DNA of 64,000 bases from an archaeon (GCA_035528795.1 DATKXY010000177.1:2634-66633); one strand, 5' to 3'. Numbered from the stretch's first letter, positions 39,449 through 54,327 are shown. Notes: a model not told the origin generated them from the sequence alone. Translations and numbers: made by a program.

Positions 39449-41482
39449 TCAATCAGCCAGGATCTCCCTGGCGAACGGGCTGCGGCTGCCGGAAATCTCG
39501 ATCTCTCCCCCGACCCGGGCTTTGGTAAAGCTGATTTTTGCTTTTCCTATCGTAATCGCAACCTCGGTGTCCGTGACCCGGGATTCAGCCTGCGGCACGC
39601 TTGCTGTGGCTGAATCTGCAGCAGTCAAAACGTGCAGGAAGTAATCCACAGCCGCTGGCACGGGCGGTGAGACCTCGACACGGCACTCAGGCGAGGGGCC
39701 GAACTCGCGCCCGGGCGGATAGCTCCTGCCTCCGTAGCTATAAAGGTCCGGCCCCTGGTTGAGCTTTACCCTGGCCTCCTTAGGCAGCACTGTCTGGACA
39801 AACAGCCGCCCCCTGCCATTGGCGATCACGAGGTTCGGCGCTGCTCCGGTGGGCGGCTTTGCAGCCTGAAGGAGCCAGGTCTTCTTGAAATTCGGGTCTT
39901 TTGATTTCACCCGGTCGAAAATCACGAACGTGCCGGGCCGGATATAGACAATCTGTCGGGTGAAATAGTCGAGCTTTTTGGCCCTGTAAGCCCTCGAGCA
40001 GTCACCGGCAAGGTAGAGGTAGGCGCTCCGGTCCTCGAAAGCGAGCATGTCCGCGATATCGTAAAGCCGGCGATCTTTCTCCCAGGCCGCCGCATCCTCG
40101 ACAGAGCCGTTGTGATGCGGCCAGTCGTGGTGCTGCCCGCCGTCGTTGCCTGTGACATTTCCCAGGCGGATAGCGGGCCAGGTCTCATCCGGATCGTAGA
40201 CCAGGATTGTATTATGGGCGATTGTGCGCAGCATGTAGTTGACCTCGTGGTCCGAGTTCCATGCAAAATACTGGCCGCCGTCGCCTGCCAGCTCCTCATA
40301 CTTGAAAATGACAAAATGTCCCACATCCAGGTGCTGGTGGGCAGTGAACCGGTCTCCGCATCTGAAGAAAAAGTAGGTGGCATCGTCATCCCACGAACTG
40401 CGCGCATAGACAAAGCCCGGGCCGGTGCTGATATGCGAGAGCTTGAAAGATTTCAGGTCGCCTTTCACTACTGTCGGATCGCGCCAGAGGAAATCTTTGT
40501 AAGCATTGACCACCATGCACGAGACCGGCATGGTCTCGTTGAAAGTATGGACACACCTGTGGGCCGGGTCATCGCGGAAGCGGCTCACCAGGATGCGCCG
40601 GGCCGAGAGGGTTTTGTCGCGGTCGTTTCCGGGGATCCTGCCGCAGCCGTCGCCCATGGGAACCGGCCGGCGTGAATTGTGCTCCCCGATTGCCGGGTAA
40701 GCCTCGAACATGCTTGCAATAGCACGTTTTCCCAGGAACTCCGGGGACATTGCGAAATAGTCAACCCCCTCGCAGCGGCGGGCCACCTCGCAGAAAAACA
40801 TCCATTCATAAGTCCAGTAATTCACATAGTAGCCCTCGGCCCAGCCGCCGCCGTCACCGGTTAGCTTAAAGGCCGGGACCACACGCTCGCAGAACTCTTT
40901 TTCCATGGCCGCTAAAATTTCCGGAGACCGCTTATTCTCATAATAAGTGGCGTAGCAGGCCATGCCGATCCCCCAGTGCTTGTAGCTATACCAGCCGTTA
41001 TGGAACGGCGAGGTCTCGGAGCGGACATTGGCATCCACGGTCTCGTTCAGGTAGCGGTGGAACTTCTCCCGTTCCACTTCTGTCCAGCAAGGGTAGCACA
41101 GGTCATAAATAATAGCGCAGTTGGCCAGGATATCGCCGAAACGGACATGGCCCACCAGAATCGGGGCGTTTATATATCTCATGGCTAGCTCGACTGCTTG
41201 CTTGCCCCTTTCTTCGTCCCCTTCGATCGCATACATCAGGGACATGGAGACCATCCTCTCGTGGTCGCCCCCTTCGCGCTGGGTGACCATCTCCACAACG
41301 CGGGCATAGGCCATCGGGCGCTGGCGCTCCAGGTCCTTCAGCTCCTCGCGGGTACCGAGCAGGCGCGGGTGTTCCCTGGACACTGCATGCCTTGTGGAAA
41401 AATCCGCGGTCTGCGCAGGACCTGTAATAAAGAACAGTCCGATCAGCGCCAGCCCAGCCGGTTTTTTCAATAATTCGAACAT
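39449..41482 (-). CDS. Secreted heparinase II/III-like (alginate-lyase-like toroid + Hepar_II_III beta-sandwich) protein, paralog 1
   Basis: Signal peptide. Motifs HPRLLGT, YDLCYPCW, FHNGWYSYKHWGIG, FTAHQHLDVGHF, IAHNTILVYD. About 60-70% identical to the other four. Confidence 0.55.
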   Translation of the reverse strand: MFELLKKPAGLALIGLFFITGPAQTADFSTRHAVSREHPRLLGTREELKDLERQRPMAYARVVEMVTQREGGDHERMVSMSLMYAIEGDEERGKQAVELAMRYINAPILVGHVRFGDILANCAIIYDLCYPCWTEVEREKFHRYLNETVDANVRSETSPFHNGWYSYKHWGIGMACYATYYENKRSPEILAAMEKEFCERVVPAFKLTGDGGGWAEGYYVNYWTYEWMFFCEVARRCEGVDYFAMSPEFLGKRAIASMFEAYPAIGEHNSRRPVPMGDGCGRIPGNDRDKTLSARRILVSRFRDDPAHRCVHTFNETMPVSCMVVNAYKDFLWRDPTVVKGDLKSFKLSHISTGPGFVYARSSWDDDATYFFFRCGDRFTAHQHLDVGHFVIFKYEELAGDGGQYFAWNSDHEVNYMLRTIAHNTILVYDPDETWPAIRLGNVTGNDGGQHHDWPHHNGSVEDAAAWEKDRRLYDIADMLAFEDRSAYLYLAGDCSRAYRAKKLDYFTRQIVYIRPGTFVIFDRVKSKDPNFKKTWLLQAAKPPTGAAPNLVIANGRGRLFVQTVLPKEARVKLNQGPDLYSYGGRSYPPGREFGPSPECRVEVSPPVPAAVDYFLHVLTAADSATASVPQAESRVTDTEVAITIGKAKISFTKARVGGEIEISGSRSPFAREILAD

Positions 41483-41590
41483 TTTTACCTCTGTGAAAAA
41501 TTAAGGGAGTTTGGTTTGATCGATAGCTGGACTAAACTCACAGTTTTAGAGCGCAACGCCGAAAGCCTCTGTAAACCGGCGGCCGGCGCA

Positions 41591-43648
41591 TTATTGATCA
41601 TGCCCTGCGTTTGCCGCGGTTCCTTTGGGGAACGGAATATGGCTGCCGGAAATCTCGATACTCCCTCCGACTTCTGCTGTGGTAAAGCTGAGTTTTATCT
41701 CGCCGAGCGTGGCTCTGACCGCAGTGTCCGTAACCTCTGCGGATGCCTGCGGTACGCTGGCTGTGGCGGAGTCGGCTGCTGTCAACACATGCAGGAAGTA
41801 ATCCACAGCCGAGGGGGACGGCGGCGAAACCTCAACGCGGCACTCTGGCGCTGGACCCGTATCGCGCTCCGGGGGATAGCTCTTGCCGCCATAGGTATAC
41901 AGGTCCGGCCCTGAGAAAAGCTTCACCTGAGGATCAAGCGGCAGCACGGTCTGGATAAACAGCCGCCCCCTGCCGTTTGTGATCTGGAGGCTCGGCGCCT
42001 TGCCTGTAGGAGTCTTCATGGCCTGCAAGAGCCAGGTTTTTTTAAAGGCGGGATTCCTGGATTTCACCCGGTCGAAAATCACAAATGTGCCGGGCCGGAT
42101 AAAGACAATCTGACGGGTATAATATTCGAGCTTTTTAGGGGAATAGGCCCTTGAACAATCACCGGCTGCGTACAAGTGGCTTCCCAGGTCTTCATAAGCG
42201 AGCATGTCCGCGATGTCGAAAAGCCGGCGGTTTTTCTCCCAGTCAGCCACATCTACAGCTGCGCCGTTATGGTGCGGCCAGTCGTGCATCTGTCCGCCGT
42301 CATTGCCTAGCAGGCCCTTCCAGGCGCGGATATTGGTCCAGGTCTCATCCGGGTCATAGACCAGGATGGTGTTATGGGCTATTGTGCGCAGGTGATAGTT
42401 GACATCGTGGTCGCCGCCGAATGAGGAATAATGGCCGCCGTCGCCGGCAAGCTCCTCGTACTTGTAGATCAGGAAATTCCCCAAATCCAGGTGCTGGTGC
42501 GCGGTGAACCGGTCGCCGCATTTGAAAAAGAAGTAAGTGGCGTCCTCATCCCACGAGCTGCGCGCATAGACATAACCCGGGCCGGGACTGTAATGGGAAA
42601 GCTTGAAAGCTTTCAGATCGCCTTTTATAACTGAGGTGTCGCGCCACAGAAAGTCCTTGTATGCGTATGTGCTCACGGCCGACTGGGGCGTGGTCTCGTT
42701 GAATGTATGTACCGCCTGGTGCGCCGGGTCGTCACGGTAATGGCTCACCAGGATGCGCCTGGCGGAGAGCGCCTTGTCCCGGTCTCCGCCGAACACCCGG
42801 CCGCCGCTGTCGCCGATCGGGATCGGCCGGCGGGAGTTATACTCGCGCAAGCCCGGGTAGGCCTCGAACATGCTGGCCACGGCGCGGTCAGTGAAAAATT
42901 TCGGCGCGAGCCCGTAGCAATCGAAGCCTTCGCACAACCGGGCGACCTCGCAGAAAAAAAGCCATTCATAGGACCAGTAATTGATATAGTATCCCTCGGC
43001 AAATCCCCCGCCGTCCCCTGACAGCTCAAGGGCCGGAGCCGCACGCGTGATATAATCCTGTTTCGTGGTCTCGAGAATCTCAGGGGCCCGCTCGTTCTCG
43101 TAATATGTGGCATAGCAGGCCAGGCCGTACCCCCAATGCTTGTATCCATACCAGGCGTTGTGGAATACGTGGGTTTCCGAATTTAGATTGGCATCCACTG
43201 TCTTGTTCATGTAGTCGTGGAACCGGACCCGCTCTTCAGGGTTCCAGCAGGGATAGCACAGGTCGTAGACAATGGCGCAGCGGGCCAGATCTGAGCCGAA
43301 AGTGACATGGCCCTGCCGGATCGGTCCGTTGACATATCTCATGGCCATCTCAACAGCTTTTTCGCCGATCTCTTTGTCCCCTTCGATTGCGCAGACCAGG
43401 GACATGGAGATCATCTTCTCGTGGTCGCCAGCCTCCCGGTTCCGGGCCACATCCACCACGCGCGCATAAGCCTCCGGGCGCTCCCTGGCCAACTGCTGCA
43501 GCCGCTCGAGCGAGCCCAGAAGGCGCGGGTGTTCCTTAGGGACAGCCTGCTTTTTTGTTCCGGCCTCCTCTTGAGCGCAGCCGGTCAAGAAAAAAACGGA
43601 CAGCCCGAACAAGATCAAGCCATTTAAGAAACGCGTGGTTTTAGACAT
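41591..43648 (-). CDS. Heparinase II/III-like lipoprotein, paralog 2. Start refined to MSKTTRF.
   Basis: Lipobox LTGCAQ. Same conserved blocks as paralog 1. Confidence 0.55.
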   Translation of the reverse strand: MSKTTRFLNGLILFGLSVFFLTGCAQEEAGTKKQAVPKEHPRLLGSLERLQQLARERPEAYARVVDVARNREAGDHEKMISMSLVCAIEGDKEIGEKAVEMAMRYVNGPIRQGHVTFGSDLARCAIVYDLCYPCWNPEERVRFHDYMNKTVDANLNSETHVFHNAWYGYKHWGYGLACYATYYENERAPEILETTKQDYITRAAPALELSGDGGGFAEGYYINYWSYEWLFFCEVARLCEGFDCYGLAPKFFTDRAVASMFEAYPGLREYNSRRPIPIGDSGGRVFGGDRDKALSARRILVSHYRDDPAHQAVHTFNETTPQSAVSTYAYKDFLWRDTSVIKGDLKAFKLSHYSPGPGYVYARSSWDEDATYFFFKCGDRFTAHQHLDLGNFLIYKYEELAGDGGHYSSFGGDHDVNYHLRTIAHNTILVYDPDETWTNIRAWKGLLGNDGGQMHDWPHHNGAAVDVADWEKNRRLFDIADMLAYEDLGSHLYAAGDCSRAYSPKKLEYYTRQIVFIRPGTFVIFDRVKSRNPAFKKTWLLQAMKTPTGKAPSLQITNGRGRLFIQTVLPLDPQVKLFSGPDLYTYGGKSYPPERDTGPAPECRVEVSPPSPSAVDYFLHVLTAADSATASVPQASAEVTDTAVRATLGEIKLSFTTAEVGGSIEISGSHIPFPKGTAANAGHDQ

Positions 43649-43794
43649 AGCGAGTTTGCTCCTGTGGGGTGAGAAAAGGCGGTTTTCCCTTTTTACAGAA
43701 GGAATCTGATTCAACTTCCCGGACTGCAGGTAAATCCGATTCGAATCAAAGATACCTTTGAAAAATGTGATCATTTTGCTTTAGAACTATGGCC

Positions 43795-43905
43795 TGCTTT
43801 ATATAACTCTATAAAATTCAATAGGTTATTGATAGGGGCGGTTCGCGAACCGCCCCTACGGATAGAATATTATCCTTTTACCTGGGATTTTTTTAAAGGT
43901 CTCTC
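43795..43905. repeat. Intergenic repeat family A, reverse-orientation copy
   Basis: gataggggcggttcgcgaaccgcccctac perfect palindrome, plus the reverse complement of agagacctttaaaaaaatcccaggtaaaaggataa. Confidence 0.65.
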
Positions 43906-43958
43906 AAAGATAAATTTTTAAGGATTTTTTTAAGGAATCAAGGGTTCGCAGTTTTAAG

Positions 43959-46139
43959 CTACATCTTTTTCAGGCATTCGAGCACGTCGAGAACGTCTAT
44001 TGCCCCGTCCTCGTTCATGTCCGCGCAGACTGACTGCTGCCCGGTCGGAGCTCCCAGTCCCAAGGCGAACCGGAGGATCGTCACCGCGTCCAAGATATTT
44101 ACAGCACCGTCATCAGTGACATCCCCAGGCAGGAAGCACTCAGTACTCTCGAAAGTATAACCGACCTCGCCTGTCTTAAAAGTGATCTCTGTCCTGCCCA
44201 GCGTGACCTTGACCTCTGTTTCCGTGACCTGCGCCGCTGCCTGCGGGACGCTCGTGGTGGATGAGTCGGTGGCAGTCAAAACATGGAGGAAGTAATCCAC
44301 AGTTGCAGGCAGGAAGGGCGAGATCTCGATTCGGCACTCGGGCGCCGGGCCGGTATCGCTCTCCGGCGGATAGCTCCTGCCGCCGTAACTGTAAAGGTCC
44401 GAGCCTGAGTTAAGTTTTACCACGGACCTGGTTGGGAGCACGGTCTGCACGAACAGCCTTCCTCTCCCATTGGTGATCCGGAGGTTCGGCGCCTCCCCTG
44501 TGGGAGGTTTCATGGCCTGCAGGAGCCAGGTTTTTTTGTAGGTGGTTCTCCTAGATTTCACCCGGTCGAAAATCACGAATGTGCCGGGCCGGATGAAGAC
44601 GATCTGCCTGGTGAAATATTCGAGCTTGCCTGTTGAATAGGCTCTCGAGCAGTCGCCTGCCACATAAAGGTAGCGGCCCTGGTCTTCGAAAGCGAGTATA
44701 TCGGCGATATCGTACAGATTACGCCCTGTTTGCCAGGCCGCTGCGTCTTCGACAACTCCGTTATGATGGGGCCAGTTGTGGTGCTGCCCGCCGTCGTTGC
44801 CAGTGACCGTGCCTGCCCGGATGCCCGGCCAGGTCTCGTTCTGATCATAGACCAGTATCGTGTTATGGGCGATTGTGCGCAGGTGGTAGTTGACATCATG
44901 GAACGAGCCGAACGAGTCGTAATGGCCCCCGTCTCCGGCCAGCTCCTCGTACTTGCAGATCAGGAAATGCCCGTTGTCCAGATGCTGGTGCGCGGTGAAC
45001 CGGTCGCCGCATTTGAAAAAGAAATAGGTGGCGTCCTCATCCCACGAGCTGCGCGCATAGACATAACCCGCACCCGGGCTGTAATGCGAGAGCTTGAAAG
45101 CTTTCAGGTCGCCTTTGGGTACGGAGGTATCGTGCCACAGAAGGTCTTTGTAGGCGTAAGTGCCGGTAGCCGAGCGCGGAGTGGTCTCGTTAAAAGCGAA
45201 GACTGCCTGGTGCGCCGGGTCATCGCGGTAGCGGCTGACCAAAATGCGCCGGGCCGAGAGGGCCTTGTCCCGGTCGCCGCCGTATACCCTTCCTCCTCCG
45301 TCACCCATGGGAATCGGCCGGCGGGAATTATATTCGCGGATGCCGGGGTAAGCCTCGAACATGCTGGCCACGGCGCGGTTCCTGAAAAATTTAGGCGCCA
45401 TCTCATAGTAATCCAGCCCCTCACAGTAGCGGGCGACCTCGCAGAAAAACATCCATTCGTAGGACCAGTAGTTGATATAGTATCCCTCCGCCCAGCCGCC
45501 GCCGTCCCCGGCCAGCTCGAGGCACGGAGCGGCGCGGTTGCGGAACTCCTGCTCCAGGGCTTTGAGAATCCCAGGCGCGCGGTCGTTCTCGTAATATGTA
45601 GCATAGCAGGCCAGGCCGATCCCCCAATGCTTGTAGCCGTACCAGCCGTTGTGGAACGGCGAGGTCTCGGAGTTGACATTTCCATCCACAGTGGCGTTCA
45701 TGTATACATGAAACTTCGTGCGCTCCTCCTGAGTCCATGAGGAATAGCACAGGTCGTACACAACCGCGCAGCGCGCCAGGTCGTGGCCGAAAGTCTCATG
45801 GCCGATTATGATCGGGCCGTTGACATAGTTCATAGCCAATTCAACGGCCTCCCTGCCGATTGCGCTGTCCCCATCGATTGCACAGACCAGGGACATGGAG
45901 ATCATCCTCTCATGGTCTCCCGCTTCCTGGTTGTGTGCCACGCTCACAGTGCGCGCGTAGGCATCAGGCCGCTCACGGGCCAGTTCTTTCAGCCGCTCCA
46001 GCGAGCCCAACAGGCGCGGATGTTCAGTGGGGATAGAGTGCCGCGTGGAATCGCCAGCGCTCTGGGCGAATACGGCCAGACAAAACACCGAGAGCCAGGA
46101 AAGTGCCAGTCCAACTGATAACTTTATTAATTTAAACAT
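43959..46139 (-). CDS. Heparinase II/III-like secreted protein, paralog 3, with C-terminal dockerin-like module
   Basis: Conserved lyase blocks plus C-terminal GDVTDDGAVNILDAVTIL...DMNEDGAIDVLDVLECL (two Ca-binding loop repeats). Confidence 0.55.
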   Translation of the reverse strand: MFKLIKLSVGLALSWLSVFCLAVFAQSAGDSTRHSIPTEHPRLLGSLERLKELARERPDAYARTVSVAHNQEAGDHERMISMSLVCAIDGDSAIGREAVELAMNYVNGPIIIGHETFGHDLARCAVVYDLCYSSWTQEERTKFHVYMNATVDGNVNSETSPFHNGWYGYKHWGIGLACYATYYENDRAPGILKALEQEFRNRAAPCLELAGDGGGWAEGYYINYWSYEWMFFCEVARYCEGLDYYEMAPKFFRNRAVASMFEAYPGIREYNSRRPIPMGDGGGRVYGGDRDKALSARRILVSRYRDDPAHQAVFAFNETTPRSATGTYAYKDLLWHDTSVPKGDLKAFKLSHYSPGAGYVYARSSWDEDATYFFFKCGDRFTAHQHLDNGHFLICKYEELAGDGGHYDSFGSFHDVNYHLRTIAHNTILVYDQNETWPGIRAGTVTGNDGGQHHNWPHHNGVVEDAAAWQTGRNLYDIADILAFEDQGRYLYVAGDCSRAYSTGKLEYFTRQIVFIRPGTFVIFDRVKSRRTTYKKTWLLQAMKPPTGEAPNLRITNGRGRLFVQTVLPTRSVVKLNSGSDLYSYGGRSYPPESDTGPAPECRIEISPFLPATVDYFLHVLTATDSSTTSVPQAAAQVTETEVKVTLGRTEITFKTGEVGYTFESTECFLPGDVTDDGAVNILDAVTILRFALGLGAPTGQQSVCADMNEDGAIDVLDVLECLKKM

Positions 46140-46326
46140 AATCCGGCAGCTCCTGTGTATTGAGGAATGGAGTGTCTCTCTGGATTATCGACAGGATCAG
46201 GTCTGCCCGCGGACAGCGGTTGAAACTCCTGAACAGATTTCGGGCAAACAGCACCCAATCAATCAAGACACCCCGGCCTGATGGCCGGAAGCTTTATATC
46301 TCAGGATCTCTGATCCTGCATAAAAT

Positions 46327-48429
46327 CTACTCGGCTATGATCTGTTTAGCTAACGGGACACGTCTGCCCGAAATCTCGATCTCTCCCCCGACAGCGTCTT
46401 TTGTAAAGACAAGCTTAGCCTCGCCGAGCGCGGCTGTGACCTCTGTGTCCGTAACCTGCGCCACTGCCTGGGGGACACTGGAACAGGCGGAGTCTGTAGC
46501 TGTCAATACGTGCAGGAAGTAATCCACAGCCGAAGGCGAGGACGGCGAGACCCCGACACGGCACTCGGGCGCCGGGCCCCGTTCCTCCTCAGGCGCATAG
46601 CTCTTGCCGCCGTAGGTGTAAAGGTCCGACCCCTGGTTGAGCTTCACCAGGGCCTTTTCTGGCAGCACGGTCTGGACAAACAGCCGCCCCCTGCCGTTGG
46701 TGATCACAAGCTCTGGCGCCTTGCCTGTGGGCGGCTTCGCGGCCTGAAGCTGCCAGGTCTTCCTGAAATTCGGGTCTTTGGATTTCACCCGGTCGAAAAT
46801 CACGAATGTGCCGGGCCGGATAAAGACAATCTGGCGGGTGAAATATTCGAGCTTTTTCGGCGAGTAGGCCCGCGAGCAGTCCCCGGCCACGTAGAGGTAT
46901 TCGCCCCTGTCCTCAAAGGCGAGCATGTCCGCGATATCGTAAAGCTGGCGGTTTTTCTCCCAGTCAGCCACATCTACAGCCGCGCCGTTGTGGTGCGGCC
47001 AGTCGTGCATCTGCCCCCCGTCATTGCCTATCGCACCTTTCCAGGCCCGGATGTTAGTCCAGGTCTCATCCGGGTCGTAGACCAGTATCGAGCTGTGGGC
47101 GATCGTGCGCAGGAGATAGTTGACATCGTGCTCCCCGCCGAAATAATAGTACTGGCCGCCGTCCCCGGCGAGCTCCTCATACTTGCAGATCAGGAAATGC
47201 CCGTTGTCCAGGTGCTGGTGCGCGGTGAAGCGGTCGCCGCATTTGAAATAGAAATAAGTGGCGTCCTCATCCCACGAGCTGCGCGCGTAAACATAGCCTG
47301 CACCCGGGCTGAAATGCGAGAGCTTGAAAGCTTTCAGGTCGCCTTTGTTGACAGTAGTATCCCGCCAGAGGAAGTCCTTGTAAGCGTTTCCGGGCACTCC
47401 TGAGACAGGGGTGGTCTCGTTGAAAGCATGCACCACCTGATGCGCCGGGTCGTCGCGGAAAAAGTTCACCAGGATGCGCCTGGCGGAGAGGGCCTTGTCG
47501 CGCTCAGGACGGAATTTCTGGCCCCCGCTGTCGCCCATGGGGATCGGCCGGCGTGAATTGTTCTCGCGGATCCCAGGGTAGGCCTCGAACATGCTGGCCA
47601 CGGCGCGGTTAGTGTAAAACCTGGGCGCCAGCTCATAGCAGTCGAACCCCTCGCATCTCCGCGCCACCTCGCAGAAAAACATCCATTCATAGGACCAGTA
47701 ATTGATATAGTACCCCTCCGCCCATCCGCCGCCGTCCCCGGCCAGCTCAAGGGCCGGAGCCGCGCGCGTGATATAATCCTGCCTGGTGGTCTCGAGAATC
47801 TCCGGGGCGCGCTCGTTCTCGTACCAGGTCGCATAACAGGCCAGGCCGTATCCCCAGTGTTTGTATCCGTACCAGGCATTGTGGAACACATGGGTCTCGG
47901 AGTTCACATTGGCATCCACTGTCCGGTTCATGTAGTCGTGGAATTTCAGGCGCTCTTCCTCTGTCCAGCAAGGATAGCACAGGTCGTAAACCAGGGCGCA
48001 GTTGGCCAGGTCGTGGCCGAATGTCTCATGGCCCACCCGGACCGGGGCCTCGATATATTTCATGGCCATCTGCACGGCCTGTTTGCAGAGCTCATTGTCC
48101 CCGTCGATCGCGCAGACCAGCGCCATGGAAATCATCTTCCCGTGCCTGTCAGCTATCAGCTGGTCGCCGGCCTCGATATTGCGCGCTACACCCACAACAC
48201 GCGCATAGGCCTCAGGCCTCTGCTCGGCCAGGTCCTGCAGTTCCTGCCTGGAGCCCAGCAGACGCGGGTGTTCCTTGCTGATTGCGTGCCTTGTAATACC
48301 AGTCTGCCCGGGAGTGGAAACAGCCTGTACCGGGGTTGACTCTTTCTCTTTTTTTGCGCACCCGGCCCAGCAAAAGACAGACAGACAAAGCAACACCAAA
48401 GCCTTCTGTAAATAAGTTGATCCAGACAT
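46327..48429 (-). CDS. Heparinase II/III-like lipoprotein, paralog 4. Start refined to MSGSTYLQ.
   Basis: Lipobox WAGCAKK. Conserved blocks as above. Confidence 0.55.
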   Translation of the reverse strand: MSGSTYLQKALVLLCLSVFCWAGCAKKEKESTPVQAVSTPGQTGITRHAISKEHPRLLGSRQELQDLAEQRPEAYARVVGVARNIEAGDQLIADRHGKMISMALVCAIDGDNELCKQAVQMAMKYIEAPVRVGHETFGHDLANCALVYDLCYPCWTEEERLKFHDYMNRTVDANVNSETHVFHNAWYGYKHWGYGLACYATWYENERAPEILETTRQDYITRAAPALELAGDGGGWAEGYYINYWSYEWMFFCEVARRCEGFDCYELAPRFYTNRAVASMFEAYPGIRENNSRRPIPMGDSGGQKFRPERDKALSARRILVNFFRDDPAHQVVHAFNETTPVSGVPGNAYKDFLWRDTTVNKGDLKAFKLSHFSPGAGYVYARSSWDEDATYFYFKCGDRFTAHQHLDNGHFLICKYEELAGDGGQYYYFGGEHDVNYLLRTIAHSSILVYDPDETWTNIRAWKGAIGNDGGQMHDWPHHNGAAVDVADWEKNRQLYDIADMLAFEDRGEYLYVAGDCSRAYSPKKLEYFTRQIVFIRPGTFVIFDRVKSKDPNFRKTWQLQAAKPPTGKAPELVITNGRGRLFVQTVLPEKALVKLNQGSDLYTYGGKSYAPEEERGPAPECRVGVSPSSPSAVDYFLHVLTATDSACSSVPQAVAQVTDTEVTAALGEAKLVFTKDAVGGEIEISGRRVPLAKQIIAE

Positions 48430-48613
48430 GGTCGGGTTTCTCCTCTGAAAAGGGAAGTTAAGTGAGATACGGTTAGTGACGGCAGCGGGTCGTCTAAAGA
48501 ACGGCAATTGGAATCCGGATCGAATCCGGGACAAACTGCATTCAAGAAATCTCGAGATCCAGGTCATAGAATGAACTAACCATTATTTCAGGCTCAATGT
48601 TCCTGCCGGAACA

Positions 48614-50656
48614 TTACTGAGCCACTATCTCCTTAGCGAACTGGGTGCGTCTGCCGGCGACCTCGATCCCTCCGCCGACCTCCTGAGTAGTAAAGACAAT
48701 CTTCCTCCCGGCGACCGTGACCGTGACCTCCGAGTCTGTCACCTCGGCGGCAGCCTGGGGCACGCTCACTGTGGACGAGTCTGCCGCTGTCAGGACATTC
48801 AGGAAATAATCCACTTCCGCGGGCACTGGCGGCGATACCTCGATGCGGCACTCTGGCGCCGGGCCGACATTGTGATAGGGCGGATAGCTCCTGCCGCCGT
48901 AGCTGTAAAGCACCGGGCCGGAGAAGAGCTTTACTCTGGGTTCCAGCGGCAGCAGGATCTGGACAAACAGCCGCCCCCTGCCGTTAGTGATCTGGAGGCT
49001 CGGCGCTTCGCCGGTGGGAGGCTTCATGGCCTGAAGGAGCCAGGTTTTCTCGAACCCCGGGTCTTTGGATCTCACCCGGTCGAAAATCACGAATGTGCCG
49101 GGCCGGATAAAGACAATCTGGCGGAAGAAATACTCGAGCTTTTTCGGCGAGTAAGCTCTGGAGCAGTCGCCTGCCACATAGAGGTAGCCGCCCCGGTCCT
49201 CGAAAGCGAGCATGTCCGCGATGTCATAGAGCTTGCGCCCTTCCACCCAGGCAGCGGCATCCTGGACAGAGCCGTTGTGATGGGGCCAGTTGTGGTGCTG
49301 CCCCCCGTCATTGCCGATCGGGCCCTTGAAAGCGCGGATCGCGGGCCAGGTCTCGCCCGGATCGTGGACCAGGATTGAGTTATGGGCGATAGTGCGCAGA
49401 AGGTAGTTCACCTCGTGGTCAGTGTCGAACGCATAGAACTGGCCGCCGTCGCCCGCCAGTTCCTCGTACTTGTAGATCAGGAAATTCCCCACATCCAGGT
49501 GCTGGTGCGAGGTGAACCGGTCGCCGCACTTGAAAAAGAAGTAGGTGGCGTCTTCATCCCACGAGCTGCGCGCATAGACATACCCCGGGCCTTGGCTGAT
49601 ATGCGAGAGCCTGAAATTTTTCAGGTTGCCTTTCTTGACACTCGTATCGCGCCAGAGAAAATCCTTGTAGGCATTCGCCACTACACCCGAGACCGGAGTG
49701 GTCTCGTTAAAAGAGTGCACCACCTGGTGCGCCGGGTCATCCCGGAAAAAGTTCACCAGGATGCGCCGGGCTGAGAGGGCCTTGTCGCGCTCGCCTGTAA
49801 ATACCCGGCCCCCGCTGTCGCCCATGGGAACCGGTCGGCGGGAATCGCGCTCCCTGATACCAGGGTAAGCCTCGAACATACCGGCCACTGCGCGGTTCCC
49901 TAAAAATTCAGGGGAAAGGTCGAAATAATCCATCCCCTCGCATCTTCGCGCCACCTCGCAGAAAAACATCCATTCATACGACCAGTAGTTGACATAATAG
50001 CCCTCGGCCCAGCCGCCGCCGTCCCCGGCAAGGGCAAAGGATGGGACCACGCGCTCGCGGAACTCATTCTCCAGGGCTTTTAAAATCTCCGGCGACCGGG
50101 GGTTCTCGTAATATGTCGCATAGCACGCCAGGCCGATCCCCCAGCTCTTGTACCCGTACCAGCCATTGTGGAACACGCTGGTCTCCGAGCCGAGATTGGC
50201 ATCCACTGTGCGGTTCAGGTAGTCGTGGAATTTCATGCGCTCTTCAGCGGACCAGCAGGGGTAGCACAGGTCGTAAGCAAGCGCGCAGCGGGCCAGGTCG
50301 TGGCCGAAAGTCTCATGGCCCACCCGGACCGGGCCGTTTATATATCTCATGGCTATCTCGACAGCCTTCTTGCCGTACCACTGATCCCCCTTGATCGCAT
50401 AGAGCAGGCCCATGGAGATCATCTTCTGGTGATCGTCCCCCTCCTGCTCGAACGCCACCTCAGCGACACGGACAAAATCCCCGGGTTTCTGCCTGGCCAG
50501 CTCTTTCAGCTCTCCCGCTGTGCCCAACAGCCGTGGATGTTCCCGGCTTACCGGGTGTCTCGTTGACACGGTTTCAGCCGAGAATAGCCCTGTGCAGCAG
50601 AAAAGGAACAACGCGCTCAGACCAAAGGCATTTATGTTTTTTATGGATTTGCACAT
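48614..50656 (-). CDS. Heparinase II/III-like secreted protein, paralog 5
   Basis: Signal peptide. Conserved blocks as above. Confidence 0.55.
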   Translation of the reverse strand: MCKSIKNINAFGLSALFLFCCTGLFSAETVSTRHPVSREHPRLLGTAGELKELARQKPGDFVRVAEVAFEQEGDDHQKMISMGLLYAIKGDQWYGKKAVEIAMRYINGPVRVGHETFGHDLARCALAYDLCYPCWSAEERMKFHDYLNRTVDANLGSETSVFHNGWYGYKSWGIGLACYATYYENPRSPEILKALENEFRERVVPSFALAGDGGGWAEGYYVNYWSYEWMFFCEVARRCEGMDYFDLSPEFLGNRAVAGMFEAYPGIRERDSRRPVPMGDSGGRVFTGERDKALSARRILVNFFRDDPAHQVVHSFNETTPVSGVVANAYKDFLWRDTSVKKGNLKNFRLSHISQGPGYVYARSSWDEDATYFFFKCGDRFTSHQHLDVGNFLIYKYEELAGDGGQFYAFDTDHEVNYLLRTIAHNSILVHDPGETWPAIRAFKGPIGNDGGQHHNWPHHNGSVQDAAAWVEGRKLYDIADMLAFEDRGGYLYVAGDCSRAYSPKKLEYFFRQIVFIRPGTFVIFDRVRSKDPGFEKTWLLQAMKPPTGEAPSLQITNGRGRLFVQILLPLEPRVKLFSGPVLYSYGGRSYPPYHNVGPAPECRIEVSPPVPAEVDYFLNVLTAADSSTVSVPQAAAEVTDSEVTVTVAGRKIVFTTQEVGGGIEVAGRRTQFAKEIVAQ

Positions 50657-51402
50657 TACCTGGCAGCTCCTCCGGCGGTGAGAAAAGGGGTGAAGCCGTT
50701 GTCAGGAAAAGTAACATCTCCGGACTGAAAAGACGGCAAATGAAAATCTGAACCGGATTGTGATAATTTGCAAGGAGTTTTTGAAAGGAGGTAAGACTTT
50801 AGGTCGACCACCAAAGTTGAAGATAGTTGTGAGCTTCTAATTAAAGCGATAGTTTGAAAGAACTCGTAGTGACAAGGTACTACTAGACCTTAACTTTAAT
50901 AAATTCGGAAATTTATAACTTTAGCACTTTTTCACACAGATTTAGAATGTTTTATGACTTTTGCAGCCTATCAAAAGTACTAAAAATTTTTGGCGTGTAG
51001 TAAATCGAAGACCTCCGTAGGCTTCAAATAAACCTCTGTTGCTAATAGGGGCTTTATCTGTTAATCTCTTGAGACTCATAAAGGAGGCCTGGTTGCGGCC
51101 TGGGAACGCATGCCGTTGAAGATTTAAAAGAATGACCTTGTTAACCAAATAAATTTAGATTTAATGGCAATATCTTAAAAATGTAGTTCTGAAATAGAAA
51201 TAGATAGAAAATGTACGGTTCTTCTTGACTTCAATGATTTTGAACATTATAAAAAAAATAGATAATAAAAAAGGCAGTTGTTGAAAATTTAAGATACAAT
51301 ATTTAAGTTAAATTTTAATAAATTAGACATGTATTAGTTTTATTTAATTAAAGAACTAGATTTACAATAAGTTATAAATATTGTTCTTTTAAGGAGATTA
51401 AA

Positions 51403-54327
51403 ATGAATGGATATAAAAATCTTTTGGAAAGGCTTGAGAAACTAAAAGAAAATATAGCTATCTTCCAAAAAGTAGTATTACACGCTCATTCCCCTGACAG
51501 TTATGACTATGCGCAAATTATTAAAAGAAAAGAAAAAATGGTTTTTGATACAAGAGATAAAAATATTATTGAAAATATTTTCTTGGAGGAGATAAAATCT
51601 ATTAACATAGATATGTTAGCAATAACAGATCACATGAAATGTGATTTTTCTTGTCGATTGTCACAATTAGCTAAAAAAAGTAATAAATGTATTCTTCCTG
51701 GAATGGAAATTAATTTTCAACCTTCACCACCTTTAGATACTTTTAAACTACATATAATAGCAATATTCCCCGAAGATTACACACTTGAGCAAATATGCAA
51801 GATTTTACCTAAAGACATACCAGATGAAAAAAATCGCACCGGGAGAGAATTAATAAAGGGTTCAGATCTTACAGTATTTATTAAAACCATCCATGATTTT
51901 GGAGGACTTTGTATAGCAGCACATATTGATAATGAAAGTGGAGTTAGAAAAGCCTTTAGACAGCTTGGTAAAGATGGAATTGTATTATATTCAACCGAAG
52001 GAGAATCTTCTAAAGAAGAGGATAGACAAATTTCAGGAAAATTCAAAGACTGGATTCTCACCTCTGGTTTTGATGCAATTGAAGTGGCAAAAGAGACAGA
52101 TAAAGAGCATTACCGTTGGATTAGTGAAATAGCAGGTAAAAAAGTTAGTATCCCGGTTCTTTTGTCAACAAATGCTCACAATGCTCAAGATATTGCAAAT
52201 GAAAATCGAGTTACGCATATAAAAATGACTTCCATTTGCTTTGAAGGCTTAAAGCAAGCTCTTCAATTTCCTGATACACGTATTAGATTTCCTGGTGATG
52301 TACCAATTCCTCCGTCGCCTATTATCCTTGGTCTAGAAATAATTGCTAGTGATGAAAAAGGCTTTTTTAAGACACTTCGGATTTCATTCTCAGATAATCT
52401 TACATGTCTAATAGGACCTCGAGGTTCTGGAAAGTCAACTATCATTGAGGCACTTCGTTATGCTTTTGGCTACAATAGAACATTACATGAGATTGAACAA
52501 CCTAGTGCAGATTTAGCTAATAAAGTGAAAGGACTTCAAGAAGCTACTTTAACCAATTGCGTTATTCGCGTAGTATATTGTGTCAAGGATAGAGAAAATC
52601 ATATCTTGGAGGCCACCTATGATCAAAAACAAGATTACACAACTAGGGTTTTTACAATAAATGGAGATGAACGGGAAGTCCATGATGTTGAAACTAGTGG
52701 ATTATATCCTATGAGACTTTTCGGATGGAGTGAAATAGAAACTTTAGGACGAGAAGCACATCGCCAAAGAGACCTTATTGATAGACTTATACCTGGGATT
52801 AATGTAAAACTTGAACAATTGTCAGATTTCAGATCCTCGCTAGCAGATAAACGAAGAAACATTGAGACCTTAGTGTCCAATCTTTCAAATACAATACTAA
52901 GAAACAATGGTGAAATAAAAAGATATAAGGAATATAAAGCAGATTTCGATCTACTTAATACACCAGTAGTACAACAGTTGTTTTTGGAAATTGATACAGC
53001 AAAAACAAAAGAAAAAATTCTATCAGAACTTAAAAATAAAACACAAGAAAGGATAGATTCACTTTTGAACACTATGAAAACAGAACTTTTTGAAGGTCTT
53101 GATGAATTGCTTATTGATCCATCAGAAACACTTAAAAATTGGTGGTCTGAAACTAAATTAGAATTAAAGATTCCCGATATAGAAGCTGATGTACGTAAAA
53201 AAACTAACCAAGCAGTAGATCTTTTAAAAGATCTTGTACATGAAGTAGATATAAATATTCAAAAATTAAAAGAAATAATACAGAAAAAGGAAACGGAAAT
53301 TAGAGAAAAAGTTAGTGATGAAACTGCCAAACAAGTGGCTGCTGAAAGGAGAAGAATAGCTGAAGAACGCCTTCAGCGCGTGCAAGAACTAAAACGGGAT
53401 TATAAAAAAATATGGGAACAATTTGAAGATAACATAAAAAATTGGATGGAGATAGCAAAAAAACTTGCAGATTTATCAGATGAAATTAGTGATAAAAGAG
53501 CAAGGCGAAAAGAAGAGATTGAATCTCGCCTTAATCAATTTGGAACTCAAGAAATGAAAATATCCTTACGGTTTAAATCTGGTGGAGATAGAATAAATTT
53601 TGAAAATTATCTTCGTGATAGTGGTTTTTTAAATAGAGACTTACATGGTAATTACAAGGCAAACAAATGGCCTGAGAAAATTTCTTCGAACTACACTCCA
53701 ATTGAATTGGCAAAAGCAATACTATTAAAAAAACCACACCAAATAAACAAAAGTACCTCTCTTATGGTAAAATTATTATTAGATAATGACATTGAAAAAA
53801 GATTGATAGATACACTTTTTCCATTCAGTCATGATGATGATGCTGATATACCAATAGTCGATAGTAAAAAACTCGATAAAATTTTGGAGATGGCAGAAGT
53901 GGTTTGGAATGATGAAGAAGGCATACTTCTGAATAATAGACCTGTTGAGAATCTTTCGCCTGGACAAAGGTCGAGCGCTATGCTGCCACTAATCGCCCTG
54001 TCAGAAGATGCACCTTTAGTTATCGACCAGCCAGAAGATAATCTTGATAACCGTTTAGTTGGTAAAATGCTTGTTGACATACTTACAGATCTTAAAGAAA
54101 AACGACAAATCATAGTTGCAACCCATAATCCTAATATAGTAGTCTCTGGAGATGCAGAACAGGTAATTGTTCTTGATGCTCTAAGTGATTCTGAGGGAAT
54201 TTGCACTCAAAGTGGTTCTATTGACAATAAGGAAATTATAAAATCAATTCTCGAAATTATGGAAGGAGGTAAGGACGCTTTTATTGCAAGACAGCATAGA
54301 TATGGTCTTTCTAATTCGTCAATATAA
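51403..54327 (+). CDS. PHP-domain phosphoesterase fused to an SMC/Rad50/SbcC-like ABC ATPase with long coiled coil. Candidate single-gene defence protein (Ppl-like).
   Basis: AAGGAG SD 7 nt upstream. PHP motifs LHAHSPDS, AITDHM, GMEINF, HIIAIF, AAHID, TNAHNAQD. Walker A GPRGSGKST. ~400-aa K/E-rich coiled coil. Signature-like LSPGQRS. Walker B LVIDQPEDNLD. H-loop ATHNP. Strongly AT-rich gene and flanks. Confidence 0.8.
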   Translation: MNGYKNLLERLEKLKENIAIFQKVVLHAHSPDSYDYAQIIKRKEKMVFDTRDKNIIENIFLEEIKSINIDMLAITDHMKCDFSCRLSQLAKKSNKCILPGMEINFQPSPPLDTFKLHIIAIFPEDYTLEQICKILPKDIPDEKNRTGRELIKGSDLTVFIKTIHDFGGLCIAAHIDNESGVRKAFRQLGKDGIVLYSTEGESSKEEDRQISGKFKDWILTSGFDAIEVAKETDKEHYRWISEIAGKKVSIPVLLSTNAHNAQDIANENRVTHIKMTSICFEGLKQALQFPDTRIRFPGDVPIPPSPIILGLEIIASDEKGFFKTLRISFSDNLTCLIGPRGSGKSTIIEALRYAFGYNRTLHEIEQPSADLANKVKGLQEATLTNCVIRVVYCVKDRENHILEATYDQKQDYTTRVFTINGDEREVHDVETSGLYPMRLFGWSEIETLGREAHRQRDLIDRLIPGINVKLEQLSDFRSSLADKRRNIETLVSNLSNTILRNNGEIKRYKEYKADFDLLNTPVVQQLFLEIDTAKTKEKILSELKNKTQERIDSLLNTMKTELFEGLDELLIDPSETLKNWWSETKLELKIPDIEADVRKKTNQAVDLLKDLVHEVDINIQKLKEIIQKKETEIREKVSDETAKQVAAERRRIAEERLQRVQELKRDYKKIWEQFEDNIKNWMEIAKKLADLSDEISDKRARRKEEIESRLNQFGTQEMKISLRFKSGGDRINFENYLRDSGFLNRDLHGNYKANKWPEKISSNYTPIELAKAILLKKPHQINKSTSLMVKLLLDNDIEKRLIDTLFPFSHDDDADIPIVDSKKLDKILEMAEVVWNDEEGILLNNRPVENLSPGQRSSAMLPLIALSEDAPLVIDQPEDNLDNRLVGKMLVDILTDLKEKRQIIVATHNPNIVVSGDAEQVIVLDALSDSEGICTQSGSIDNKEIIKSILEIMEGGKDAFIARQHRYGLSNSSI

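Follow-up and report, generated by a model that had tools for sequence, protein, structure and literature searches.

What role does a run of five neighbouring, closely similar heparinase-like genes play in a genome catalogued as archaeal, to which organism does that genome belong, and how did the five copies come about? These questions are raised by a 64,000-nt stretch of metagenomic DNA (GCA_035528795.1 DATKXY010000177.1:2634-66633), referred to below as the window, from whose first letter all coordinates are counted. A first-pass annotation of this DNA had proposed that five consecutive genes between positions 39449 and 50656 arose by recent tandem amplification and encode secreted heparinase II/III-like proteins that cleave or bind an acidic polysaccharide. 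In our judgement, the five proteins are probably exported members of a tight clade of polysaccharide lyases (PLs) that resembles family PL21 and is encoded here in the genome of a member of Candidatus Glassbacteria, and their chemistry would be that of lyases acting on uronate-containing glycans.

The five-gene array

Five consecutive open reading frames (ORFs) were recovered on the minus strand at exactly the positions claimed before (39449-41482, 41591-43774, 43959-46139, 46327-48567 and 48614-50656). The products had been given as 677-746 amino acids (aa) long; the five genes are the same, but the lengths of 727 and 746 aa proved to be artefacts of the ORF caller. In each gene an AGGAG ribosome-binding site precedes a Met that lines up with the start codons of its fellow copies, and independent gene callers used the corrected Mets in other contigs (685 aa for paralog 2 in L001, 700 aa for paralog 4 in L003), so that after two start-codon corrections paralogs 1 to 5 measure 677, 685, 726, 700 and 680 aa. 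The features of the array are as follows:

39449-41482 (-): paralog 1, 677 aa, type I signal peptide; an ORF that matches the NCBIfam HepB model with E 2.8e-40
41591-43648 (-): paralog 2, 685 aa, corrected start at Met 43648 with AGGAG (the ORF reaches 43774); lipobox LTGC (Cys24)
43959-46139 (-): paralog 3, 726 aa, type I signal peptide; predicted catalytic module followed by a C-terminal type I dockerin
43962-44129 (-): dockerin module of paralog 3, aa 671-726, with the repeats DVTDDGAVNILD and DMNEDGAIDVLD
46327-48429 (-): paralog 4, 700 aa, corrected start (the ORF reaches 48567); probable lipoprotein with the atypical lipobox WAGC
48614-50656 (-): paralog 5, 680 aa, type I signal peptide; without a Pfam match, NF045571 E 1.1e-36

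The five products can be aligned collinearly from end to end; paralogs 2 to 5 are 68-71% identical to paralog 1, and the mean column identity is 72%. Pairwise identities in the trimmed alignment range from 68 to 77.5%, paralogs 2 and 4 being the closest pair (77.5%). The conserved motif blocks quoted in the first-pass annotation recur in all five copies with small deviations (YDLCYSSW in paralog 3; FTSHQHLD, YKSWG and ILVHD in paralog 5; IAHSS in paralog 4).

An assembly artefact, which would show as a collapse to a single copy in independent assemblies, was ruled out by three independent contigs that match with 99.97-100% identity and no gaps and in which the copies stay separate: L001 (MEGAHIT, 15.8 kb, spanning all five genes), L002 (JGI) and L003 (a second ENA contig). 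L001 (ERZ27256828) differs by five single-nucleotide polymorphisms, one of which changes a TAT (Tyr) codon of paralog 4 to TAG at position 47254 (coding strand G versus T in the window; codon 392 from Met 48429) and splits the gene into stretches of 391 and 227 aa. Either a sequencing error or a nonsense polymorphism of the population accounts for this change. Downstream of paralog 4 there is a terminator-like hairpin (46290-46271); promoter and terminator scans gave results no better than shuffled controls.

Heparinase II as the nearest characterized relative

Among proteins of known structure, heparinase II (HepII or HepB; PL21; structures 2FUQ and 3E7J) of Pedobacter heparinus stands closest to the family formed by the five paralogs and their relatives. 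In a search of the PDB the family profile matched HepII (2fuq) with an E-value of 1.8e-38 over aa 332-658, i.e., the C-terminal half, PL15 with 1e-6 and PL12 with 1e-3, which places HepII nearer than either by more than 30 orders of magnitude, and BLASTP aligned HepII with 29% identity over 366 aa (E 5e-37). The NCBIfam HepB model (NF045571) matches all five paralogs (E 1e-37 to 1e-40, 126-138 bits). A profile of the N-terminal half, which corresponds to the toroid, gave only a weak match in the PDB (E 0.36) that does not cover His202 or Tyr257 of HepII. Several bridging homologues from an exhaustive search align over their full length to both the family and HepII (27-29% identity), and when the family was compared with the HepII clade by hhalign, the probability was 100% with E 4.8e-85 over 660 columns at 25% identity. 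The literature on PL21, where our searches returned mostly papers on leukaemia cell lines, yielded no closer characterized enzyme.

The predicted structure agrees with these alignments. A first AF2 model from 39 sequences (pLDDT 65.6) was poor in the catalytic centre and was replaced by a model of paralog 1 from 118 sequences (pLDDT 85.3, pTM 0.87), in which helices at aa 45-333 are followed by the strands of a beta-sandwich at aa 349-669. Foldseek ranked HepII first (3e7j/2fuq, E 1.2e-31, TM 0.71-0.72), followed by the PL15 enzymes Atu3025 and exoHep, the PL35 GAGases, PL17, PL39, human dermatan sulfate epimerase 1 (DS-epi1), PL12 and PL33, with TM scores of 0.60-0.72 to structures of PL21, PL15, PL17, PL35 and PL39. 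The heparinase II/III-like fold of a toroid plus a beta-sandwich proposed in the first-pass annotation is therefore upheld by profiles, hhalign and AF2/Foldseek alike, with PL21 as the nearest family.

The likeness to HepII comprises homology over the full length, the two-domain fold (TM 0.71), the N-terminal HPRL motif and the NDGGQ and RTIAHN blocks. The family nevertheless differs in having only 25-29% identity to HepII, with a toroid that is barely alignable by sequence (E 1e-3), and in missing the C-terminal domain of HepII (PF18675), which matched none of the five paralogs; the family ends near HepII residue 725. While HepII is found in Bacteroidota that degrade glycosaminoglycans (GAGs), the hosts of the family are uncultured lineages from sediment, soil and aquifers. 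The enzymes of PL15 (Atu3025 alginate exolyase; exoHep), PL17, PL35 (GAGases) and PL39 belong to the same fold class (TM 0.60-0.70), but their sequence similarity is marginal (E 1e-6 for PL15 and no significant matches to the others), and their substrates (alginate, hyaluronan, chondroitin sulfate and heparan sulfate) are not transferable to the clade of the five paralogs.

Conservation of the catalytic and metal-binding residues

Family residues are numbered as in paralog 1, and HepII numbering is the PDB index plus 25, as fixed from the profile alignment. In profile and bridging alignments, HepII Y257, H406, H408, D425 and H451 correspond to Y219, H382, H384, D401 and H423 of the family: the HQH, GDGG and IAHN motifs align with His406/His408, Asp425 and His451, and in the bridging alignment Tyr257 coincides with the second of the two Tyr in AEGYY, a motif that is invariant. 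The catalytic Tyr257 and His406 of HepII and its Zn ligands His408, Asp425 and His451 are hence all conserved. Seven residues (H161, N162, E216, G217, Y219, H382, H423) do not vary across 118 family sequences, and H384 and D401 are kept in at least 90% of them. The alignment of the catalytic His and Tyr, which had been suggested as a check on the family assignment, thus finds both kept in the five paralogs and throughout the family.

An invariant F-H161-N162-G-W-Y motif lies 57-58 residues before Tyr219, the distance from N162 being 57, and HN or NH occurs at -57 to -61 from the catalytic Tyr in most relatives. A neutralizing Asn, often with an adjacent His, is found at the matching position in PL12, PL15, PL17, PL35 and PL39, where it precedes the Tyr by about 54-57 residues and is complemented by a His of the beta-domain; HepII is the exception and uses Glu205 and His202 as neutralizer and anti-base (PMC12088678). 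In this arrangement the five-paralog family shares the catalytic logic of PL15, PL17, PL35 and PL39, and its invariant His-Asn, which is situated a few residues from the segment aligned to HepII H202/E205, either replaces that pair or cannot be aligned to it. Since the Tyr, His, Asn and metal-binding residues are invariant or at least 90% conserved, the predicted beta-elimination apparatus is intact, while the substrate-contacting details are unlike those of heparinase II.

Each protein would accordingly be built as an (alpha/alpha)6 toroid packed on an antiparallel beta-sandwich and would cleave a 4-linked uronic-acid glycan by beta-elimination. In the mechanism we propose, Asn162, possibly aided by His161, would neutralize the carboxylate, and Tyr219, assisted by His382, would take the C5 proton and then protonate the leaving O4. 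A structural metal ion would be bound by His384, Asp401 and His423.

Predicted export and tethering of the five copies

All five N-termini consist of a basic n-region and a hydrophobic h-region, which bears out the earlier view of them as export signals. For the two lipoboxes proposed with it, the outcome under the PROSITE PS51257 regular expression was divided: FGLSVFFLTGC of paralog 2 matches and its LTGC is canonical, whereas WAGC of paralog 4 misses the strict pattern by one position. Orthologues in the clade of paralogs 2 and 4 have IAGC or FGC, and of the five other sequences of this clade that were compared, four have a Cys after the hydrophobic stretch (the exception being L041_+8297).

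The dockerin had been assigned to paralog 3 only, and so it is: PF00404 matches at aa 671-720 with 36.8 bits against a cut-off of 22.9 (E 4.4e-9), and the two calcium-binding repeats are those of a type I dockerin. Dockerin-bearing orthologues of paralog 3 occur in L008 and L009, and the match to them extends to aa 726. No cohesin was matched by Pfam among the window ORFs scanned, a scan that did not cover every ORF. Paralog 3 resembles the dockerin-bearing carbohydrate-active enzymes (CAZymes) of cellulosomes in its canonical two-repeat type I module; here, however, the host is no known cellulosome producer, and the module is confined to paralog 3 and its orthologues in L008 and L009.

Judged from these predicted signals, the copies appear to differ most visibly in deployment, with paralogs 2 and 4 anchored by lipid, paralogs 1 and 5 freely secreted and paralog 3 tethered by its dockerin. 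They probably also differ in fine substrate or subsite preference, which would amount to sub-functionalization. Large secreted proteins with an FlgD_ig-type C-terminal domain are encoded near family members both in the window (60997-62613, -) and in L042 (13444-15087); this domain may be a sorting or surface-anchoring module in the lineage.

Distribution and gene neighbourhoods of the clade

At 90% clustering the family has at least 871 relatives, and each of the best 120 shares 63-74% identity with paralog 5. At 50% clustering the clade is essentially one full-length representative, while the wider superfamily comprises 530 clusters when the threshold is E<1e-30 and 3,940 when it is E<1e-3. 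Among the species representatives of GTDB, 184 stretches encode the clade. The best 80 are all metagenome-assembled genomes (MAGs), mostly of Planctomycetota, together with Verrucomicrobiota, Glassbacteria, Gemmatimonadales, Poribacteria, Armatimonadota, Anaerolineales, Hebobacteria, Omnitrophota, Aegiribacteria and Bryobacterales. Tandem copies are present in only 8 of 82 loci, chiefly in Glassbacteria/Gemmatimonadota with two to three copies each, and the five described here form the largest array found. For an exported CAZyme the family is unusually well conserved, at 60-75% identity over about a dozen phylum-level lineage labels. In its tree the phyla are mixed, and sequences of Verrucomicrobiota and Aegiribacteria fall inside clades of Planctomycetota; together these two observations suggest repeated horizontal transfer, strong constraint, or both.

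The first-pass annotation had remarked that no glycoside hydrolases (GHs), SusC/D-like genes or transporters accompany the array, and none was detected among the window ORFs scanned, including membrane-transporter genes; nor was a SusC/SusD pair with GHs, of the kind that marks polysaccharide utilization loci in Bacteroidota, found in the 64-kb window. This lack of GHs is a peculiarity of the five-gene locus, as sibling loci carry GH123, GH109, HepII-type, BNR_4 and sulfatase genes. At L031 949-3240 and L042 3332-5587, with the genes next to these positions, a Glassbacteria MAG and a MAG labelled 'Gemmatimonadales' share a conserved four-gene block made up of a canonical HepII-type gene with the HepII_C domain (PF18675), a GH123 gene and two family copies. 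This block suggests that the clade works beside a true PL21-type enzyme and a beta-N-acetylgalactosaminidase. In L041 three family copies are accompanied by a GFO/IDH/MocA oxidoreductase and a BNR_4 protein, and L045 carries a GH109 gene. Planctomycetota loci encode sulfatases, GH129-like, beta-helix/GDSL, ThuA and xylose-isomerase-like proteins. The commonest neighbours over 79 loci are GFO/IDH/MocA oxidoreductases (13), PQQ-like propellers (11) and sulfatases (8).

Three metagenomic proteins of 1033-1055 aa (P0057, P0068 and P0082), 66-67% identical to paralog 5, combine the family module with a C-terminal CE15-like glucuronoyl esterase domain. Their alpha/beta-hydrolase matches CE15 structures over the whole domain (8trx with E 8.3e-8; 7nn3; 6hsw) and keeps the GxSYxGK nucleophile motif as GHSYGGK. 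These fusions provide independent evidence for uronic-acid chemistry; no description of such a lyase-esterase fusion was found in the literature examined.

The gene context of the relatives suggests that the substrate is an acidic glycan containing amino sugars, possibly sulfated or esterified, for which exopolysaccharides of microbes or algae would be examples; animal heparin is less likely. A more specific proposal, which we regard as possible and put forward only tentatively, is that the clade constitutes a new lyase subfamily whose substrate would fall outside the classical GAGs and alginate, namely an abundant esterified and/or sulfated glucuronate glycan produced by microbes, algae or plants and present in anoxic sediments and soils. 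The tightness of the clade, the uncultured lineages from which all members seen derive, the CE15-like fusions and the neutralizer residues unlike those of HepII leave room for this idea.

Evidence against a lyase function and the epimerase alternative

Several observations weigh against reading the five proteins as PL21-like lyases. The Hepar_II_III profile (PF07940), named earlier as a check, gave a divided answer: against a gathering threshold of 24 bits, paralogs 1, 2 and 3 pass with 24.0, 27.9 and 33.5, whereas paralogs 4 and 5 have no match, although most homologues carry a precomputed one. The NF045571 scores lie far under the 600-bit equivalog cut-off, and the proteins are therefore not heparinase II proper. 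In their source records the clade sequences are named no further than 'heparinase II/III family protein'. HepII His202/Glu205 have no unambiguous counterpart, as MAFFT places H202 on a Tyr while hhalign places S204-E205 on the invariant S-E-T of the family with H202 at a gap edge, and HepII Asn405 and Arg261 are replaced in the family by Ala/Ser and Trp, respectively. The HepII sequence by which the toroid residues were placed was validated by its length of 772 aa, by two PDB-derived fragments that lie where they should and by nine published residues of the right identity. No GH, sulfatase or transporter gene that might hint at a pathway was found at this locus, and clustering of 472 neighbours from the 79 loci revealed no fixed gene partner. 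Finally, the clade is biochemically uncharacterized.

To the same side belongs the resemblance to polymer-level uronate C5-epimerases or other non-cleaving modifiers, such as DS-epi1 or the bacterial heparosan and alginate epimerases. C5 proton abstraction is the first step of both lyases and epimerases. Epimerases share the toroid and beta-sandwich fold and the Tyr/His/His chemistry with the family, human DS-epi1 (6hzn) is a strong Foldseek match (E 1.7e-18, TM 0.67), and the pair that HepII uses as neutralizer and anti-base is not clearly kept. On the other hand, the nearest relative by sequence is by a wide margin a lyase, DS-epi1 and the bacterial uronate C5-epimerases are biosynthetic and have no match at the sequence level, all five copies are predicted to be exported, lipid-anchored or dockerin-tethered, and the relatives adjoin degradative genes (GH123, GH109, sulfatases and the CE15 fusion) rather than clusters for glycosyltransfer and export. 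Because of the export signals and the degradative neighbours, an epimerase fits poorly, and we consider this alternative unlikely.

Host and age of the array

The proteins of the source contig are titled 'MAG TPA ... [archaeon]' at NCBI, where an exact copy of paralog 5 lies on a contig of 133,667 bp. The window, however, encodes FlhA, FlhB, FliP, FliR, an FlhF-type GTPase, a sigma-70-family factor, an HDOD protein and a Ctp-type S41 peptidase, and its FlhA is 77-82% identical to that of Candidatus Glassbacteria, the next group (KSB1 and others) reaching about 62%. On account of the bacterial flagellar export genes, the sigma-70 factor and the FlhA identity, the host is a flagellated Glassbacteria bacterium and not an archaeon, and the taxonomic label is wrong or the contig was mis-binned. 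GTDB ranks Glassbacteria as a class of Gemmatimonadota (PMC11316326), which accounts for the place of MAGs labelled 'Gemmatimonadales' among the Glassbacteria copies.

The first-pass annotation had regarded the array as a recent tandem amplification within an accessory mosaic region. That the genes lie in tandem on one strand agrees with this, as does the GC content, which drops from the 58% of the array to 33-47% on either side, and the phylum-mixed family tree suggests horizontal transfer at a deeper level; a variant in which a bacterial block moved into an archaeon could appeal to the source name. The divergence of the copies speaks otherwise. Paralog pairs have nucleotide identities of 72-79%, synonymous divergence (dS) of 0.74-1.11 and ratios of non-synonymous to synonymous divergence (dN/dS) of 0.18-0.28. 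In a neighbour-joining tree of copies from 56 loci with 100 bootstraps, the five paralogs never formed a monophyletic group (0/100) and sit in separate subclades shared with other Glassbacteria/Gemmatimonadota MAGs: paralog 1 with copies from L041, L045, L004, L031 and L042 (100/100), paralogs 2 and 4 in one clade (86/100), paralog 5 with L004_7857 (84/100) and the dockerin-bearing paralog 3 with L008 and L009 (72/100). Recent amplification is ruled out by these dS values and bootstraps.

Nor is the array a foreign GC island. Its GC content of 58-59% and its GC content at third codon positions (GC3) of 0.71-0.75 equal those of the aconitase, fumarase and RACo genes of the window, and other Glassbacteria MAGs carry arrays of two to three copies. 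The mosaic description is not supported for the array itself; only the flanks are compositionally odd (33% GC in an SMC-like, Ppl-like gene, 43% in a methyltransferase gene and about 43% in ABC ATPase genes). An archaeal host, or a transfer from bacteria to archaea, is excluded by FlhA, FlhB, FliP, FliR, FlhF and sigma-70, with FlhA being Glassbacteria-like. The 'recent' and 'archaeal' parts of this explanation are refuted, and as a whole, including a horizontally acquired island, we hold it to be very improbable. From the dS values, the tree with its bootstraps and the host-like GC3, it follows that the duplications are old and the array is native. The copies are old paralogues of at least three to four subfamilies that predate the divergence of the Glassbacteria-class MAGs, and all are under purifying selection.

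Selection also bears on whether the proteins are catalytically dead, glycan-binding or adhesin-like surface proteins, since 'cleaving or binding' had been left side by side in the first-pass annotation. A binding role would agree with a window devoid of enzymatic partner genes, with the dockerin on paralog 3 and with the nonsense polymorphism of paralog 4 in one assembly, which may mean that this copy is dispensable. Yet the Tyr, His and Asn residues and the metal-site His423 are invariant in the 118 sequences, with H384 and D401 conserved as described above, and dN/dS is low in all copies. Pure binding is therefore extremely improbable, and of the two functions cleavage is favoured.

The window genes upstream of the array serve flagella and central metabolism, and those directly bordering it are unrelated to it; tRNA and Rfam scans of the window gave no matches. 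Besides AGGAG, a loosely conserved block (...TTTCA..TGCCGTC...) recurs upstream of paralogs 2 to 5 (43649-43958, 46140-46326, 48430-48613 and 50657-50900), which suggests that their 5' regions were duplicated along with the genes. Divergently oriented beside paralog 5 lies a gene (51403-54327, +) whose product of 974 aa combines a PHP-like N-terminus with an SMC/AAA_15 ATPase domain. It has 33% GC and a GC3 of 0.20, and its best PADLOC match is Ppl, a defence system of a single gene (PDLC02208, E 1.5e-35); by composition and similarity it is a candidate foreign defence gene. On the other side, at 35137-36792 (-), two adjoining ABC_tran ATPase ORFs of 222 and 317 aa (~43% GC) have no membrane component nearby; they may represent two separate genes or a single ABC-F-type gene that a frameshift has broken in two.

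Implications

The analysis defines a widespread, uncharacterized PL21-like clade whose uncultured hosts include Planctomycetota, Verrucomicrobiota, Glassbacteria/Gemmatimonadota and Anaerolineales, among others, and it corrects the GenBank 'archaeon' label of the 133-kb contig. Taken as a genome feature, the array is an ordinary tandem expansion of CAZyme genes. For experimental work it provides concrete residues to mutate together with five natural isoforms. If the clade does act on a substrate of its own, the array would represent a localization-diversified toolkit (free, lipid-anchored and dockerin-tethered) for that substrate. Once found, the substrate would add a piece to the turnover of acidic-polysaccharide carbon in sediments and soils.

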